Numbered from the stretch's first letter, positions 3,903 through 12,205 are shown. The stretch: 12,205 nt of DNA from Candidatus Thorarchaeota archaeon (GCA_004524445.1 SDNP01000051.1:1-12205); one strand, 5' to 3'. Notes: a model not told the origin generated them from the sequence alone. A program made the numbers and translations.

Positions 3903-4262
3903 CTAGTATCCCCATTCTTGACCGAGTCGTTGCCGATACCAACGTCTTCCTTTCTTTGTGAGCGAATATGTGCCACCAATCTCGTTCAGAATATTCATCT
4001 GGACCATATTCTGAATAACGCTATAGAGTTGGGAGTCTGATGCCCCAGTAGCGTTCTTCAGAGCTGCAAAGTCCATCTTCCCGTTTCGCTTGACCGTCTG
4101 AGCAATTTCAAACTTTCCAACGGAACGACCATCATCGCGTACTATTAAGTGGCCACAGTTCGTGCAAAGCAAATCGCCTTTGCTTTCGTCTCGGGCGACT
4201 TCGTTGCTACCGCAAATCGGACATGTTCTCTTTGAGAATCTCAGTGAACGACGATTTGTCAT
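3903..4262 (-). CDS. TFIIB/TFB-type zinc ribbon fused to a winged-helix domain
   Basis: CPICGSNEVARDESKGDLLCTNCGHLI fits the TFB N-terminal ribbon consensus (CPxCG...D...G.lvC..CG). The C-terminal half (FEIAQTVKRNGKMDFAALKNATGASDSQLYSVIQNMVQMNILNEIGGTYSLTKKGRRW) is a typical wHTH ending in YxLTxxG. Start is ATG 4262 or GTG 4274. Confidence 0.8.
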   Translation of the reverse strand: MTNRRSLRFSKRTCPICGSNEVARDESKGDLLCTNCGHLIVRDDGRSVGKFEIAQTVKRNGKMDFAALKNATGASDSQLYSVIQNMVQMNILNEIGGTYSLTKKGRRWYRQRLGQEWGY

Positions 4263-4328
4263 GATTGCGACCACTTCCTCTCAATCGGGAGTCCTGATAA
4301 AACTAGCGAAGTGGATGATTCATTCTGG

Positions 4329-5474: not shown

Positions 5475-8400
5475 TCATTGACCAGAGAAGCTAGGACTTT
5501 CGATTATCACAGATGGCTCGGTACCACGAGGCGAAACGACGCCGAGTCGCTTGTCGGCATTCTTCAGCAGATGAGTGCTCTTTGCCGGTGTGAAAATTAT
5601 GAACTGACTGTTTCTAGATGAGTCATACAATAACCGACTGACCATCTCAGTGTTTGTTGCATCAAGAAATGTATCAATCTCATCCAAAGAATAAACGGGA
5701 GCCGGATTAAATCGCTGTAAGGCTAGAATCAGACCTATGGCTACGAGGGAGCGCTCGCCTCCGGACCCTGCACTCAGTTCTTTGAATTCTTCCCCTCTGA
5801 ATTTGCACTTGAAATCAACTCCATACACTTGGTTCCTAAGAGACAAATCAAATCGAACCTCTCCTGAAAAATTAACACTATTGAGTATCTCGTTAACATT
5901 ATCCTCCACGCTTTGAAGGGTTTCATTCATTCCATTGTGGTATTCTTCCCTGATTTTGTTGATTGTATCCTCCGCTGCGCTTACTTCAGCCTCCAATTCT
6001 GCGACCTTTTTTGTTAGATTACCCAGTCTGTCCTTAAGCTTATTTTCAGTGACAGCTATAGTTTCTGATACATCTTGATAATCGTCTAGGAGATGCCTTA
6101 CTCTAATCAGTTCATTGCGAACAATTTCTAAATCCCTGACTTCAGCTGGTTGGACATATCCTTCAATCTCATCCTTAACCATATCCCTCTCACTTGACAT
6201 GGCATCCAGCTGTTTCTTAGCTTGAATGACTTCCAAACGACTGTTTCGTACCTGAAGGTTCATCTCTAGGAGGGCTTGACGATTCTCAGAGATTTTTGAG
6301 TCAATCTCTTTTTGTTCGTTCTGAAGCTGTATTCGCTCCGATTCGAGCTCCTTAATCTTTTGTTTTAGTTCGTCAATAAAACCTAGAATCTCTGAACCTT
6401 CATTTTCAGAACCTTTGAGCTCTTCTCGGACTTCCACCAGTCGCTCAGAGTACATCTCTATATTTTCATTAACATTTTGAAGCTCCTGACGCCTGACTTC
6501 TTGATTCTTCTCTGAAGACATTAGGCGATTGTCCAAATCCCTCAGTTGCTTCTGGAGTCTCCTCTGCTTCATCCTCAGGGCCGATTGCTGTCCAAGAAGC
6601 TTGCTCCTTTCAGGCGGCTGTGAATTGTCTAGTTCACGCAGTTTCGTTTCAGCATTATCAAGCTCTTGCTGAAGGTTCTCCAATTTCGACTCAAGGACAG
6701 CTACCTCTGACCGCTGCTCAGGAATTCCGTCCAGAAGTCTCTTTCTTCGTTCCCAGATTCCACTCCATCTTGATACTTGGCTCATCAGGTCCAAGACTTT
6801 GTCTCTTTCTGTAGTAGTCCCCGCTATTTTTTCCAGAACTGCAGTGAGCTGCTTTCTTGCAATTACTAGCTCATTTCTAGTATTCTTTAGCTCTTTCTGT
6901 AGAGGTGCCAATGAAACGATGCCTGTTGGCTCCTTTCTAGGGTGACTAATCTTTCTTTTTTTGTTATTTACTATGACCTGACCGTCCATTGTAACAATAT
7001 TGAGGGGGACCTTATTGGATAACCTATATGCGGACATCGAATTCTTTGTCAATACATAATCGCCGATTGCATTAGCTATAGTCTCTTTTTCGTGCCCTTC
7101 TAGTCCAATCTCATCCCATAGCCAGCCAAGAGCTCCTGGATATTCAGAAATATCAATACGTTGTGGACTCTCGCCATGCTGGGCTAAAACAATCGGAGCC
7201 GGTGCAGCCAGAGAGTCTCGCAGTTTCTGAACGAGATCGAAATCCGTTGAACTACTGGTAAGAAAAGCAAAAGAGAGATTGGGGTCTAATACGGCCTCAA
7301 GTGCATCTCCATGAATCTCATCGACTGAAAGCTCCGAAAGCAAGGGGCCAATAACATTGTCAAGTTGTCTTTCCTCTATTGCGTTTCGTAACTCCTTAAC
7401 TGAGTCTGGAATGCGTTCTGATCGCTCAGCCAATTGGTTTTCAAGAGCGTCGATTTTCTTTTGAAGCTCGGAAACTCTCGACGAGCGTTGAAAGCGAGTT
7501 TCATTTAATTCTGAAAGATCACTCTCTAGCTGTGTCTTCCGCTCTTCCAAGTCTTCTTCATCAATTTCATCTACGGTGTCCCAAAGCTCGCCCCATTTGT
7601 TCTCTATGGACTGAAGTTCAGCCTCATCAACCTGTAATTTTTCTCGAAGGCTTCGCATGAGCAGGTCAGTACTCCGTACTTCGGCTTGCAATGCTCGGTA
7701 GTCCCCATGAACTTCTGCTCTTCGGGAATTCCATTCTGCGAATTCATCCAACTTCTCATCAAGAACCCCACGTTCCTGCTCTACTTCTTCCATTTCGACG
7801 CTAATGGCGCCATGCTCTTCCATGTACCCTTCTCTAGCCTTGCTTATCCTTTGCAAGTCTTTCGATAAGCTCTCTTTCTTGCTTTTCTCCATTGCGACTT
7901 TCTCTTCCAAATCGCGAATTTCCTCAACCAAACGTTGATTGGAGTCCTCAAGTTTGCTAAGACGCCGTTCTTCTTCCTCTATTCGTGCGGTTGTCTTACC
8001 GATATCCAACTGGTTTTTCTGGAGTGACTGGTTTACTAATTCCAATTTATCCTGTTGTTCTGAAATGAGCGATTCAACATCAGAGTATTCTTCGAGAACT
8101 GACCCAAGTCCCTCTTCCTTGTCTTCTATCTCTAACCGTATCTCATTTATTCTCGCGTTCAAATCATTCAAAGCAGCCCATTTATGTTCGAGGTCGAGCT
8201 CTTTCTCTTCCTTCTGTAGTCGTCGCTTCTTCTCCAACCGTTCAAGATCATGTCCTAAGAATTCAAGTTCTTTTTGAACAACTTGTGCTTCGCTCTTGGT
8301 AGATTCCAAGCTTTCACTACTCTGGAATACTCTTGACTCTTCAAGTCTTATGCGGTCTCGAAGTTCATCAAGACCTGTTCCTTCCTCTACCAGTTTTCGA

Positions 8401-8840
8401 ACTTCTACTGGATCCATATTACGAAGAGCATTAATCCTCTCTTGAGGCATGAACACAAGAGGATTATCTGGATCAAAACCAAGTGTTTCTACCAATTGAT
8501 GCATCTCGGATGCCTTAACTCTTCTACCATCTATATATGCGCGAGGAATACCATCTCGGCTGATTTTTCTTTCAAATTTGCGTGATTGTCCATTGACTTT
8601 GGCAACAAGTTCTACCGCACCGGAAGATGCACCATGTCGTACAAAATCACTCCATTTCGAGTATCTTCGTTCCCGTTGATTGGAGCCCAATGCAAATTTG
8701 ATTGCGTGGAAGATTGACGTTTTTCCGGAACCATTCGGACCAACGACTACTGTAAGACCTTTGTCAAGCTCTACCGTGCCCTCGTAGAACGACAAGAAGT
8801 TCTTCAGCCGTACTGATTCAATATACACATCAGTTTGCAA
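5475..8840 (-). CDS. smc: SMC-family ATPase with Smc5/6-type head and hinge signatures
   Basis: Walker A GPNGSGKT (8741-8718), Q-loop NPLVFMPQERI, long coiled coils, central hinge (VIGPLL...LEAVL...AFL; IVTMDG), signature GSGGERS (5768-5748), Walker B/D-loop YSLDEIDTFLD, and QFIIFTP. Start is probably TTG 8840 (GAGGT ~10 nt upstream) or TTG 8864. Confidence 0.95.
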   Translation of the reverse strand: MQTDVYIESVRLKNFLSFYEGTVELDKGLTVVVGPNGSGKTSIFHAIKFALGSNQRERRYSKWSDFVRHGASSGAVELVAKVNGQSRKFERKISRDGIPRAYIDGRRVKASEMHQLVETLGFDPDNPLVFMPQERINALRNMDPVEVRKLVEEGTGLDELRDRIRLEESRVFQSSESLESTKSEAQVVQKELEFLGHDLERLEKKRRLQKEEKELDLEHKWAALNDLNARINEIRLEIEDKEEGLGSVLEEYSDVESLISEQQDKLELVNQSLQKNQLDIGKTTARIEEEERRLSKLEDSNQRLVEEIRDLEEKVAMEKSKKESLSKDLQRISKAREGYMEEHGAISVEMEEVEQERGVLDEKLDEFAEWNSRRAEVHGDYRALQAEVRSTDLLMRSLREKLQVDEAELQSIENKWGELWDTVDEIDEEDLEERKTQLESDLSELNETRFQRSSRVSELQKKIDALENQLAERSERIPDSVKELRNAIEERQLDNVIGPLLSELSVDEIHGDALEAVLDPNLSFAFLTSSSTDFDLVQKLRDSLAAPAPIVLAQHGESPQRIDISEYPGALGWLWDEIGLEGHEKETIANAIGDYVLTKNSMSAYRLSNKVPLNIVTMDGQVIVNNKKRKISHPRKEPTGIVSLAPLQKELKNTRNELVIARKQLTAVLEKIAGTTTERDKVLDLMSQVSRWSGIWERRKRLLDGIPEQRSEVAVLESKLENLQQELDNAETKLRELDNSQPPERSKLLGQQSALRMKQRRLQKQLRDLDNRLMSSEKNQEVRRQELQNVNENIEMYSERLVEVREELKGSENEGSEILGFIDELKQKIKELESERIQLQNEQKEIDSKISENRQALLEMNLQVRNSRLEVIQAKKQLDAMSSERDMVKDEIEGYVQPAEVRDLEIVRNELIRVRHLLDDYQDVSETIAVTENKLKDRLGNLTKKVAELEAEVSAAEDTINKIREEYHNGMNETLQSVEDNVNEILNSVNFSGEVRFDLSLRNQVYGVDFKCKFRGEEFKELSAGSGGERSLVAIGLILALQRFNPAPVYSLDEIDTFLDATNTEMVSRLLYDSSRNSQFIIFTPAKSTHLLKNADKRLGVVSPRGTEPSVIIESPSFSGQ

Positions 8841-8853
8841 ATCGATTCTAACC

Positions 8854-9924
8854 TCATCTTCCAAGTAGTCTATCTAAACGGTCTTTACTTCGTTTTGCTC
8901 GTAATAATCTCGTTAGTTTCTCATCAGCAGAGCCAGACAGCAGAAATGGGTAGTAACTAAGAAACTCACGGTCCTCGGGGGTGAGAGGGAGATTTGAGTT
9001 CAGAGTTTCTATCACCTGCTGTGTCCGATGGAAATTGTCACCCACCGCCATCAAGTAAAGCTGGTCCAGAAACGCATCAGGATACTCTTCGGATAAGCGC
9101 TCATAGGTTGGATGGGACCCACCTTCAACCTTCTGAGCTATACTATCAATCACCTGTTTCCTACCAAGGGGAACAATTCCAGCATCACCGATAATGCGCT
9201 CAAGCTCGCTCTTTGAATAGTCGCTTTTCTCGTCGAGTGGGTTTCTGACTAGGAAGGAGGCTAGGTGAGTAATGTCTGAGAATGCCCATCCTTCCGTGAC
9301 TTCAGCTATAAGAGTAGGATCAGCTGAAGAACCAGCCAAGGCTTTTTCCAATACACGAACTCTATCCTCCAGAGTAGGTGATTGGAATACGTATGTTTGC
9401 TCAAACAGAGTTAGCGCATTTCTATCAATGGCTTTTGGATTACTGGTCTGACATATCACCAGCACTTCATCAACATCCCATGAACAGTTTTTCATCTCCA
9501 TAGAGAGAACAGCCGCCTGATTCGAATTATTTTCCGCCAAAAGCTCGAATCGTTCAATATATAGAAGTGCAGGCGAGTTTCGCTTTGCAAATTCGAAACC
9601 GGTTCGAATATTTTCAGGTAATCGGTCAGGAGATTCCAATATGCCTTCGAATCTAAATCTCAGCAACCGGAGAGGAATATCAGTAGATATATGGTGAATA
9701 AATGACATGAAGTCAGTTCCAGGAGGGCCGATGAGTAGAGTTTTCCCACCAAATTTGAGCCCAAGTTTTTCAAGCTGGGACTGGTTTTCTTTGGCTTTCT
9801 CTATTTCATTCTTGAGTTTGATTGCATCCTCTACTACTGATTGCTGTGATAACTCCCGAGATGGGAGGTCCTCTGGTTCTACGAGGTCAATGACCTCTGT
9901 GTAAATTTCTTCTCTGCTCAACAC
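8854..9924 (-). CDS. Degenerate (pseudo-ATPase) classical-clade AAA+ protein, Cdc48/PAN/FtsH-like fold, with a C-terminal helical extension
   Basis: Aligns by eye to the classical AAA module: LLIGPPGTDFMS (Walker A, no Lys), NIRTGFEFAKRNSPALLYIERFE (Walker B, no DE), VLVICQTSNPKAIDRNALTLF (SRH, no Arg finger), lid IAEVTEGWAFSDI. Likely start GTG 9924 or TTG 9921, with a GGGGT SD-like motif and a TATA-like element ~30 nt upstream. Confidence 0.8.
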   Translation of the reverse strand: MLSREEIYTEVIDLVEPEDLPSRELSQQSVVEDAIKLKNEIEKAKENQSQLEKLGLKFGGKTLLIGPPGTDFMSFIHHISTDIPLRLLRFRFEGILESPDRLPENIRTGFEFAKRNSPALLYIERFELLAENNSNQAAVLSMEMKNCSWDVDEVLVICQTSNPKAIDRNALTLFEQTYVFQSPTLEDRVRVLEKALAGSSADPTLIAEVTEGWAFSDITHLASFLVRNPLDEKSDYSKSELERIIGDAGIVPLGRKQVIDSIAQKVEGGSHPTYERLSEEYPDAFLDQLYLMAVGDNFHRTQQVIETLNSNLPLTPEDREFLSYYPFLLSGSADEKLTRLLRAKRSKDRLDRLLGR

Positions 9925-10088
9925 ACTACCCCACTTGGTGGCTTTTCTTAGCAATAAATGAAAGCATAATATTCCTTCGGAATGCATGCATTTTCGCGCC
10001 TTTCGATGAAAGGAATTTATTCAAAAGCAGTTTCACCGCAGCAACCTTAAGGCTCAATTCTGAATCTAATTCTACGGTGTTACCGACT
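9925..10088. promoter_or_regulatory. Divergent promoter region between the SMC operon and the MoxR operon
   Basis: Minus-strand TTTATT (9958-9953); plus-strand TTTATTC (10016-10022) and CCTTAAGG (10045-10052); inverted repeats at 9971-9983, 9981-9992 and 9999-10013. Confidence 0.5.
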
Positions 10089-11795
10089 GTGACCACTGCT
10101 AGTGAAGCCCTGCGAGAAGTTGTGTGGAGAGTGATTAGTACAGTTGGCAGTCGAGGCCTCTTCGTACATTCAGATGAGCTCGAAATTAGACATCAGGGTA
10201 AGAGCCGCAAACGTGCCTCCATATCCAGACTGCCGCTAATTGTCGGGGCATGTGTATTAAATGCACTAGTGCCGAGATCAGCAATGCTGTTGGTAGGTGG
10301 GCATGGTGGCGGTAAAACTACATTACTGAAAGTTCTAGGTCGTATGCTGACAGGAAAGGGGCTCCAAGAGATAGAGGATGGCATGCTCAGAGGGCACCCT
10401 CAACTCACAGAAGAAAAGATGGTTGCAACACTCCGGCCTGGGCCCTTGATGAAAGAAGGTGTAGAGGTTGTTGTTTGGCGGAGGTTTGTCACAGACTTCT
10501 GGAAAATTATCGATGAAGTAAACAGACTGACCCCACACACTCAGAATATTCTGTTGTCAATGTTGGCTGAAGGCGAACTGAAATATTACGATGAAGTTAA
10601 GCGCTGTGATGAATATTGCCTATATGCGACTATGAATCCCTCAGATAGTGGGACATTTGACCTGGCACCGCCTTTTCTTGATAGATTTGGGATAGCAGCA
10701 CCCATCACAATGCCAACAACCGAAGACCTCGAGCTAATTCTTTCTTCAAGAGATGAGAAGCTATTTGGATACGACGAGTTATGGCAAGTACCAGCTTTGG
10801 CAGAAGAAGAAGACCTACTTACTATCTGGAACTTAGCTGATAAGATTCCGTTATCGGAGAATGCCTCTGCATACTTGCGTTCTATTGTAAGGGAGTTTGG
10901 TGCATGCGTACGCGTAGATAAGAGCCAGTCACATAATCTTACAATTGAAACGGGGCTTTGTGACGGATGTCATTACAACACCGCAAAGAGTGTGTGCAAC
11001 AAGGTAATCATACCCTTGAGTGTACGAGCAGCAAAGGACTTGAATCGATATTCAAAGGCAGCTGCTTGGTTAGTAGGGGCAACTGAGGTCAGTGTTGAGA
11101 TTGTGAAGTCTCTTGCACCACTTGTGTTCTGGCATAGAACAACCTTTTCACAGAACGATTTGGAAGCATCGCCCTATTACGGGAATGCGTATGAATTCAT
11201 GCGACATCTAATTGAACTAGCATCAAGTAGATTCGCTCAACGCGAGTCAGCATTGAAAATTCTCAAACGACTTAAGACAGGCGAAGGAAAAGATGAGGAC
11301 CTAAATAAATTGAAAGAAATGGGGAAAAGCGACCTATTAGTCAGAATTGACTACCTTGACCTAGCTCGAGAGTTGAAAAAGAAACGGTATGCAAAGGTGG
11401 TAAAGCGAATTGAGAAGAGCATAGACAGTGCAAAAGTTAAGGAGCTGTCTGAGCTAAAGCAATCACTCATGGAAGATACTGATTTGCCTAATCGTGCAAT
11501 GTTGCTGAGAAAGGTTACGGATGCTTTACACTCTTTGACGCTATCACAGTTTGAATTGGGATTTGAGCAATGGCAAGATCTTTGGACAACGGTTAGTCTT
11601 CGGTACCCAAAGATGACAAGCATCCTCAAGGAAACCCTTAATCCTCCAAAACGAAAAGTGCTTCGAACAGATGATTTAACACTGGTAGTCTATGTAACAG
11701 GTAGTTCCCCGGATTCTCCTGTGTTTCTGGAAGTTTCTGGGGGGCCTGAAGCAATTTCACTGAAGAAGGATATAGAGAAACACCTCAAAAAATAA
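10089..11795 (+). CDS. MoxR-family AAA+ ATPase with a Cys-rich insert and a C-terminal extension
   Basis: Walker A GGHGGGKT (10296-10319), Walker B IIDEVNRL, TQNILLSMLAEG, ATMNP, GTFDLAPPFLDRF and lid motif SVRAAKDL are all MoxR hallmarks. Start GTG 10089 (GGTG upstream) or GTG 10077. Confidence 0.9.
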   Translation: MTTASEALREVVWRVISTVGSRGLFVHSDELEIRHQGKSRKRASISRLPLIVGACVLNALVPRSAMLLVGGHGGGKTTLLKVLGRMLTGKGLQEIEDGMLRGHPQLTEEKMVATLRPGPLMKEGVEVVVWRRFVTDFWKIIDEVNRLTPHTQNILLSMLAEGELKYYDEVKRCDEYCLYATMNPSDSGTFDLAPPFLDRFGIAAPITMPTTEDLELILSSRDEKLFGYDELWQVPALAEEEDLLTIWNLADKIPLSENASAYLRSIVREFGACVRVDKSQSHNLTIETGLCDGCHYNTAKSVCNKVIIPLSVRAAKDLNRYSKAAAWLVGATEVSVEIVKSLAPLVFWHRTTFSQNDLEASPYYGNAYEFMRHLIELASSRFAQRESALKILKRLKTGEGKDEDLNKLKEMGKSDLLVRIDYLDLARELKKKRYAKVVKRIEKSIDSAKVKELSELKQSLMEDTDLPNRAMLLRKVTDALHSLTLSQFELGFEQWQDLWTTVSLRYPKMTSILKETLNPPKRKVLRTDDLTLVVYVTGSSPDSPVFLEVSGGPEAISLKKDIEKHLKK

Positions 11796-12205
11796 TGAGC
11801 CGAACATATATGACAGAATCGAGTTTCGTAAACGGCGATACTTCAAATCTAGGCATACTTGCTTCTAGAGCCTGGAAAAAAGCAATCGCAGATTTCTATC
11901 ATCCCCCGCTTCCGGACCCGGTCATAGAACATGATTCGGAAAAAGCTAGTCATTTCTACATCGACTCTGATACATGGACAGTTCATCTGAATACCTTCGG
12001 AGTGCCTGCCAACCTCCCCCCCAAAGAAAAACTCAGCTTCTTGACCTCTATATGCCAACATGAGATACAGCATTATCTGGTTTGCCCCTATGATGGGGTA
12101 AGCAATGGAATGATGTTCGCGGCTGCTAGAAGACATGTTGATGACGAATTGGCAATGTTTGCATGTAATCTCTACGCGGATCTCCTTGTCGATTCAGCCC
12201 TTTTG
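11795..12205 (+). CDS. N-terminus of a HExxH zincin-like metallopeptidase-domain protein (MoxR/vWA-associated, DUF2201_N-like); partial, runs off the window
   Basis: ATG overlaps the MoxR stop (TAATG) and the frame stays open to the window end (137 codons): MSRTYMTESS...FLTSICQHEIQHYLVCPYDG...FACNLYADLLVDSALL. HEIQH at 12059-12073 is followed by an NxxxDxxxD motif. Not in the supplied ORF track. Confidence 0.85.
   Translation, partial: MSRTYMTESSFVNGDTSNLGILASRAWKKAIADFYHPPLPDPVIEHDSEKASHFYIDSDTWTVHLNTFGVPANLPPKEKLSFLTSICQHEIQHYLVCPYDGVSNGMMFAAARRHVDDELAMFACNLYADLLVDSALL

Follow-up and report, generated by a model that had tools for sequence, protein, structure and literature searches.

Why an archaeal gene should preserve the complete fold of an AAA ATPase when every catalytic element of that fold has been replaced, and what its product might do directly in front of an SMC gene, is the question raised by a 12,205-nucleotide stretch of DNA from Candidatus Thorarchaeota archaeon (SDNP01000051.1, assembly GCA_004524445.1). 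This stretch, hereafter the window, corresponds to contig C12 (12.2 kb) in its entire length; the Asgard genome to which it belongs comprises 2.79 Mb and has a completeness of 90%. The gene in question, here called pseudo-AAA, is followed on the same strand by a second SMC paralogue and by two small genes of kleisin-like and kite type (Table 1). On balance, we favor the interpretation that pseudo-AAA serves, without catalysis of its own, as an accessory subunit or a regulator of the putative complex of this second SMC with the kleisin-like and kite-type proteins, which it would bind, and that it descends from an active AAA ATPase.

The assignment to the AAA family is supported by several independent comparisons. 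A Pfam scan returned one AAA domain (PF00004, E 9.6e-7, 29.7 bits against a cut-off of 21.2), the best PDB sequence matches are Cdc48 D1, AFG2, p97, Rix7 and spastin with E-values from 6e-11 to 1e-7, and a model obtained with AlphaFold2 on the basis of 35 homologues reached a predicted local distance difference test score (pLDDT) of 88.4. With this model, Foldseek retrieved the AAA modules of FtsH, p97, PAN, spastin, Vps4 and Msp1 (E 1e-10 to 1e-12), and both the alpha/beta nucleotide-binding subdomain and the helical lid of the classical AAA clade are present according to Pfam, AlphaFold2 and Foldseek. The positions of the motifs were set by a residue-by-residue alignment to the D1 and D2 domains of Cdc48, complemented by a table of 32 sequences of the main clade of the family. 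Neither the Walker A motif GxxGxGK[ST], nor the Walker B motif hhhhDE, nor the sensor-1 Asn, the Arg fingers or the aromatic pore loop is kept in the window protein. Translation, DNA and the Cdc48 alignment place the substituted Walker A, pore loop-1, Walker B, sensor-1 and Arg-finger region where the original prediction, made from the DNA sequence alone, had located them, and the flanking structural motifs that it named, ENIRTGFEFAKRNSP and TEGWAFSDI, are also found. Since the Cdc48 alignment, the Pfam and PDB matches, the model and Foldseek agree, sequence and modeling together confirm that the product of this open reading frame has the classical AAA fold intact and all its catalytic elements replaced. 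Pseudo-AAA therefore shares with the classical AAA ATPases (Cdc48/p97, FtsH, PAN/Rpt, Vps4, spastin, Msp1) the alpha/beta and lid architecture and the flanking structural motifs, but differs from them by the absence of an N-terminal substrate domain, the addition of a 77-residue helical tail, the linkage to SMC and the replacement of the motor motifs.

The substitutions themselves are conserved. A P-loop of the form G-x-x-G-x-D-F is present in 32 out of 32 main-clade sequences tabulated, Arg or Lys usually stands in place of the catalytic Glu in the same sequences, and an alignment of 25 homologues shows G87, G90, D92 and F93 to be invariant. The combination of Asp-Phe in the P-loop with a basic residue in place of the Walker B Glu suggests a self-filled pseudo-site that would fix the fold in a single state, and a contact between Asp92 and Arg146 is suspected. 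Because nucleotide binding and Arg fingers would both be missing, pseudo-AAA probably forms no working hexameric ring.

The loss of all canonical motifs would also be expected if the gene were a decaying pseudogene, or if its product were a still-active ATPase with non-canonical motifs, and we consider either explanation extremely improbable. The ratio of non-synonymous to synonymous substitution rates (dN/dS), calculated by the Nei-Gojobori method between the window gene and its two closest orthologues (83-85% identity), is 0.08-0.13 over the whole gene; the alpha/beta core has 0.08-0.12, the lid 0.06-0.08 and the tail 0.02-0.07. The neighboring genes show similar values (0.06 for SMC, 0.09 for the kleisin-like gene and 0.05-0.08 for the kite-type gene). 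More than 170 homologues with the same substituted motifs, at 40-85% identity, are found in Asgard metagenomes and genomes. The gene is thus maintained under purifying selection, and a decaying pseudogene is ruled out by the open frame, a dN/dS of about 0.1 and the conservation of the substituted motifs. Regarding residual activity, no route to hydrolysis is known for a protein that has lost together the P-loop Lys and Thr, the catalytic Glu, the sensor-1 Asn and both Arg fingers. No intact GKT or DE motifs were found in close orthologues, the members of the family which do carry a Walker A motif (from Odinarchaeota, Freyarchaeum, Helarchaeota and Borrarchaeum) being only about 24% identical. 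The proposal that the gene encodes a selected pseudoenzyme is accordingly well founded, given a dN/dS far from 1 and a substituted P-loop that is invariant across the clade.

If the protein is not a motor, its genomic context becomes the main guide to its function. In 26 inspected loci, representing at least 12 Asgard families, a pseudo-AAA gene is located immediately upstream of the second SMC gene; the lineages concerned are Thor (the family of the window), Hermod, Loki/Promethearchaeota, Helarchaeales, Baldrarchaeia, Jordarchaeales, Odinarchaeota, Freyarchaeum and Borrarchaeum. Open reading frames of about 210 and 170 codons follow SMC in all loci examined, and the complete order (AAA-like gene, SMC, protein of about 210 residues, protein of about 170 residues) is observed in the Thor and Hermod loci and in all 21 loci of one locus set, which includes five of the individually inspected loci. 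An AAA gene also precedes SMC in the Odin, Frey, Hel, f19 and Borr loci. In the window, the stop codon of pseudo-AAA overlaps or abuts the start of smc, which suggests that the translation of both genes is coupled. Since the substituted residues are conserved and the gene is always found directly before this operon, the second SMC ring is the most likely partner of pseudo-AAA.

The genome has two SMC genes, and the operon of the window is distinct from the canonical one, which is encoded on another contig of the same genome (C56) and consists of SMC followed by ScpA (PF02616) and ScpB (PF04079); no AAA gene stands in front of that operon. The window SMC reaches 317 bits on the SMC_prok_A model, for which the cut-off is 729, and in a plain phmmer search against the PDB its best matches are prokaryotic Smc heads, with Smc5 and Smc6 lower in the ranking. 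The proteins of about 210 and 170 residues have no match in Pfam, NCBIfam or the PDB sequences, and a Helarchaeota orthologue of the kite-type gene is named ScpB by NCBI. Yoshinaga & Inagaki (2021, PMC8665677) and van Hooff et al. (preprint, 10.1101/2024.01.07.573240) reported that TACK and Asgard archaea possess, beside canonical SMC-ScpAB, a second SMC operon related to SMC5/6, and the window likewise contains a second SMC with its own putative kleisin and kite genes in a genome with a canonical operon. The window operon would thus match this SMC5/6-related type, an assignment which rests on the published trees. Both papers report three subunits, and an AAA protein or a fourth gene is not mentioned in the text of either; the preprint treats the extra Smc5/6 subunits as eukaryotic additions (10.1101/2024.01.07.573240). 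Full-text literature searches returned no paper describing the AAA-like gene of this operon, and most likely this partner gene of the Asgard second SMC has so far gone undescribed.

Table 1. Features of the window, with coordinates counted from its first nucleotide.
Feature	Coordinates	Strand	Remarks
Kite-type gene, 171 amino acids	4329..4844	-	Profile A9 found in 226/400 Asgard genomes
Kleisin-like gene, 211 amino acids	4832..5467	-	Conserved position, alignment A7 across 21 loci; no Pfam/NCBIfam match
Second SMC paralogue (1117-1129 amino acids)	5475..8864	-	Start between TTG 8864 and GTG 8828, overlapping or adjoining the pseudo-AAA stop codon; Pfam SMC_N and hinge
Pseudo-AAA gene	8854..9924	-	356 amino acids from GTG 9924, stop TGA 8854-8856; list of open reading frames, translation, Pfam AAA
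Conserved C-terminal helical bundle (tail, residues 301-377, 77 amino acids)	8857..9087	-	Conservation, dN/dS, stand-alone fold
AAA lid (helical subdomain) with TEGWAFSD motif	9202..9396	-	AlphaFold2 secondary structure
Arg-finger region IDRNALTLFEQ	9397..9429	-	ALTLF at 9417-9403 where RxxR fingers belong; no Arg at either finger position
Sensor-1 strand end QTSNP	9436..9450	-	Asn replaced by Ser182
Degenerate Walker B LLYIERFE	9544..9567	-	Asp replaced by Glu145, catalytic Glu by Arg146
Pore-loop-1 position ESPDR	9622..9636	-	Aligns to KMAG/MWYG of Cdc48; without aromatic-hydrophobic-Gly
Degenerate Walker A GPPGTDFM	9706..9729	-	Gly-Lys-Thr replaced by Asp-Phe-Met; Asp92-Phe93 where Gly-Lys is expected
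Possible 21-codon N-terminal extension from ATG 9987	9925..9987	-	More likely 5' leader/promoter DNA
MoxR-type AAA+ gene and start of VWA-type partner	10077..12205	+	Divergent from the operon; Pfam AAA_5/AAA_lid_2

The part of pseudo-AAA which is added to the classical AAA architecture, the C-terminal tail, is also its best-conserved part, with 35 of 77 columns conserved at 90% or more compared to 16 of 123 in the core. When modeled alone the tail reached a pLDDT of 92.7 and adopted the arrangement of a long helix, two short helices and a second long helix, and in this model it is an autonomous fold; the unrecognized extension of about 75 residues noticed in the original prediction is thus real. 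Its final helix is basic, as nine of the last 25 residues are Lys or Arg. A tail profile aligned by hhalign to the tail of the Hel protein gave a probability of 98.6% (E 6e-16). Searches for a known relative returned only noise: none of the 29 tail sequences scanned had a Pfam match below E 0.02, the best PDB sequence match of the tail profile had an E-value of 0.04, the best Foldseek match of the model to the PDB an E-value of 1.9, and a wide VIA-align search a best Z of 5.0, which is under the noise level for helical bundles. The tail therefore matches no known family or fold above noise, yet it does not follow from this that the fold is novel. In the AAAs of Helarchaeota (f18), f19 and Borrarchaeum, a conserved winged-helix-like C-terminal stretch takes the place of the tail (L067:2534-4153, L068:2412-4091, L069:5776-6792). 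Those of f18 and f19 display, in addition, long coiled-coil-like N-terminal extensions, and Helarchaeota apparently possess two forms, one of 374 residues with the tail (P0135) and one of 560 residues without it (P0525).

The distribution of the tail across families follows that of the kite-type gene of the operon. Genome scans were centered on the Asgard phylum, represented by 400 species genomes. The tail profile was found, as one copy, in 213 of these genomes, exclusively in families which also have the kite-type protein. Tail and kite counts, respectively, are 65/85 and 67/85 in f1, 14/14 and 14/14 in f21, 122/135 and 121/135 in f22, 4/4 and 4/4 in f23, and 3/5 and 3/5 in f15, and in f8, f10, f11, f13 and f14 neither was detected by profile. 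In the four inspected families with kite but no detected tail (f16, Frey; f18, Hel; f19; f30, Borr), an AAA gene was found directly upstream of SMC in 4/4, and the Frey member displayed a weak match to the tail profile (E 1.1e-5). Strict synteny and this co-distribution of tail and kite support the link to SMC suggested in the original prediction, in which the protein would dock through its tail. They also bear on the hypothesis that pseudo-AAA is merely co-transcribed with the operon and functions independently of SMC, for instance as a DNA-binding protein or regulator that uses its basic C-terminal helix. The nine basic residues and the autonomy of the helical bundle would suit such a factor; however, the position upstream of SMC is kept across lineages more than 75% diverged in sequence, the tail is confined to kite-bearing families, and the overlap of its stop codon with the smc start points to coupled translation of the two genes, so that we regard an SMC-independent function as improbable.

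The motor motifs are not lost to the same extent in all members of the family, and the claim that every catalytic element is substituted holds for the window gene but not for the family as a whole. The Odinarchaeota member keeps all of them (GPPGTGKT, LDEFD, the sensor-1 Asn, an Arg-finger motif reading RRF and the pore loop Y-L-G) and reaches 127 bits with PF00004 and 222 with the IetA model; a search with this protein for close active orthologues returned generic AAA proteins only, and it is a singleton in the collection searched. The members from Freyarchaeum, Helarchaeota, f19 and Borrarchaeum have kept GKT or GKS and lost the catalytic Glu, their Walker B strings reading IDNFD, LDNLE, IENVQ, LEDFE and VFDPLE. 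All motor motifs are substituted in the Thor-type members; in the Loki-type members only G-[TS]-D-[ILF] is left and Pfam no longer detects an AAA domain; and the Jord and Baldr members, of 172-315 residues, have AAA_lid_3 as their sole Pfam match, followed by the tail. The dead clade forms one branch in a maximum-likelihood tree built from the AAA modules, with a support of 99 in the Shimodaira-Hasegawa-like approximate likelihood-ratio test (SH-aLRT), and the SMC-linked family falls outside the Cdc48/PAN/Vps4 clade (SH-aLRT 100). The monophyly of all 15 SMC-linked AAAs is not rejected by the approximately unbiased test (p-AU 0.485), an inference limited by long branches. As catalytic motifs are not regained, the ancestor of the SMC-linked AAAs was most likely an active AAA, although this step is inferred.

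This series also bears on the suggestion, made in the original prediction, that pseudo-AAA could poison or join the rings of an active AAA protein, being a structural subunit of hetero-oligomers with the Cdc48, PAN or Vps4-like proteins of the host. Its fold is intact, AAA proteins of the classical clade are its best structural matches, and the genome encodes two Cdc48-like proteins, one PAN-like and one Vps4-like protein with which it could assemble. Nevertheless, the gene is strictly linked to SMC and to no AAA gene, its family lies outside the clade of the presumed partners, and the protein has no Arg fingers with which the site of a neighboring subunit could be completed. In Jord and Baldr, moreover, the alpha/beta core required for entry into a ring is missing, yet lid, tail and genomic position are kept, and since some lineages have only lid and tail, ring poisoning is very unlikely. 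No support for it was obtained, and the interpretation offered in the original prediction is, as a whole, partly supported.

Lid and tail are the sole module present in every tail-bearing lineage, and the gene abuts the start of SMC; based on this we hypothesize that the accessory subunit docks on the SMC-kleisin-kite complex via lid and tail. Pseudo-AAA would act without ATP, as a loader, clamp or regulator of the SMC ring, in a role comparable to that of Nse5/6. It may have originated as an active AAA remodeller of the SMC complex; the Odinarchaeota member still has all the motor motifs, and the Frey, Hel and Borr members are predicted to keep only ATP binding.

Several observations weigh against this interpretation. 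Gene order and co-occurrence indicate a functional link to SMC, which need not involve contact. Non-canonical nucleotide binding by pseudo-AAA may occur despite the altered motifs. Proteins from f18, f19 and f30 end in a different C-terminus, and consequently the tail is not universal among SMC-linked AAAs. The similarity between the tail profile and the Odin tail is weak (81% by hhalign, E 1e-5), and it is visible to profile comparison alone, as BLASTP gave no alignment between the Thor and Odin tails. In the tree, the Walker-A-positive members group with the dead clade with weak support (SH-aLRT 81), and long branches are involved. A complex prediction, in which lid and tail were the scored partner of the N-terminal part of the SMC head (residues 1-230), its C-terminal part (residues 873-1117) and the kleisin-like protein, scored 0.00 in two runs and gives no answer either way.

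A more specific version of the accessory-subunit hypothesis may be put forward tentatively, namely that pseudo-AAA is a stoichiometric fourth subunit of the SMC5/6-related complex, which once used ATP to remodel or unload the ring, would still be active in Odinarchaeota, and on repeated occasions became fixed as a clamp or loader that needs no nucleotide, working in several lineages with a MoxR-VWA pair. Such a pair could also have a more central part. In an adaptor model, which is compatible with the role of pseudo-AAA as an accessory subunit and would refine it, the dead AAA, or its lid and tail, hands the SMC ring or one of its subunits in trans to the machine formed by the MoxR AAA+ and VWA proteins. 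In the window, as in Thor and Hermod loci, a MoxR gene and a VWA-type gene stand head-to-head with the operon; the pair is also found beside the operon in family f2 and on an Odin-like contig, and in Jord and Baldr it lies on the same strand directly before the truncated lid-plus-tail gene, which the VWA-type reading frame overlaps by 4 nucleotides in the Jord locus L055 and by 14 in the Baldr locus L057. Moreover, no gene of the window locus is under stronger constraint than MoxR, with a dN/dS of 0.02. In contrast, no MoxR or VWA homologue was found within 11-kb stretches around 12 Loki-type loci or around the f23 loci, where the AAA-like gene is still present, and no MoxR gene adjoins the intact AAA of the Odin locus L004; we therefore regard the adaptor model as rather unlikely. 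MoxR/VWA stretches in other loci are located at L055:9-2790, L057:5502-7995, L065:573-2901 and L058:9020-10717.

Among known systems, a functional parallel may be provided by Nse5/Nse6 (SLF1/SLF2), accessory proteins that are neither kleisin nor kite and that control both the loading and the ATPase activity of rings of the Smc5/6 type. The analogy is a possible one and concerns the proposed role only, given that the model of pseudo-AAA consists of an AAA fold and a small helical bundle, with no homology to Nse5/6 and no alpha-solenoid. AAA folds that are kept without hydrolysis as structural or regulatory modules are represented by the Torsin activators LAP1/LULL1, by NSF-D2 and by Pex1/6-D1, none of which is known to be linked to SMC complexes. 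LAP1/LULL1 donate an Arg finger to their active partner and NSF-D2 still binds ATP; in contrast to LAP1/LULL1, the finger positions of pseudo-AAA hold no Arg. An SMC-like ATPase encoded together with a partner of the ring-ATPase type is also known from the archaeal Rad50-Mre11-HerA-NurA operons. HerA, however, is an active hexamer of the FtsK/HerA type and not a classical AAA, and belongs to a different complex and pathway. Regarding the anti-phage ATPase IetA/IteA, pseudo-AAA scores 38.5 bits on NCBIfam NF042959, for which the cut-off is 510, and 39 bits on the IetA model of PADLOC, and no IetS-type protease is encoded next to it; a PADLOC scan of the locus returned this weak IetA likeness and, for SMC, generic matches to ABC/SMC heads. 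The comparison with Nse5/6 is limited on the structural side, as these proteins are described as alpha-solenoids (10.1101/2024.01.07.573240).

In most of the Asgard lineages with an SMC5/6-related operon, this operon begins with a conserved fourth gene of AAA descent, which suggests that ring regulators existed in archaeal relatives of eukaryotes. Prokaryotic SMC complexes are generally taken to comprise SMC, kleisin and kite or hawk subunits, and dedicated regulators, among them Nse5/6 and Scc2/4, are seen as eukaryotic additions; if pseudo-AAA were indeed a fourth subunit, it would set a prokaryotic precedent for dedicated regulators of SMC rings in the closest relatives of eukaryotes. The family further offers a natural series, from an intact motor through forms with ATP binding only and dead forms to a remnant of lid and tail, which may serve as a model for the conversion of an AAA enzyme into a scaffold. 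Cultured Lokiarchaeum ossiferum encodes an orthologue of pseudo-AAA (NEF87_002455), which makes the question experimentally approachable.

The start of the gene merits a comment. The open frame of the gene can be read on the minus strand from an ATG at 9987 to 8854, in agreement with the uninterrupted frame originally noted, and a GTG start at 9924 fits the 356 residues of most orthologues, which begin at the position of residue 22/23. In the 21 codons upstream of this GTG, dS among close genomes is 0 to 0.18, compared to 0.63-0.94 for the whole gene. Because there is nearly no synonymous change, this segment is more likely conserved 5' DNA, such as a leader, a ribosome-binding site or a promoter, than coding sequence. 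A K-W-G translation recurs among over-extended orthologue calls.

Some additional observations concern the surroundings of both operons. Just downstream of the kite-type gene, positions 3903-4274 of the minus strand encode a protein of 123 residues that combines a zinc ribbon of the TFIIB type with a weak signal for a winged helix, and the same small gene recurs 3' of the operon in the Thor loci L001 and L013 and in L016. In five matches to the kite profile from the Thor family (G342, G344, G358, G360 and G364) there is one in-frame stop (TAA or TAG), which may be either the natural end of the gene or a disruption. The canonical SMC-ScpAB operon is adjoined by Roadblock/LC7-like and Sec23/Sec24-like genes (trunk, beta-sandwich and zinc finger; L017:11638-13771, on contig C56), which encode eukaryote-signature proteins. 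On the plus strand of the window, an open reading frame of 868 codons (189-2795) with Big_7/PKD-like Ig domains and a DUF3047 segment probably encodes a surface or secreted protein that is unrelated to the operon.

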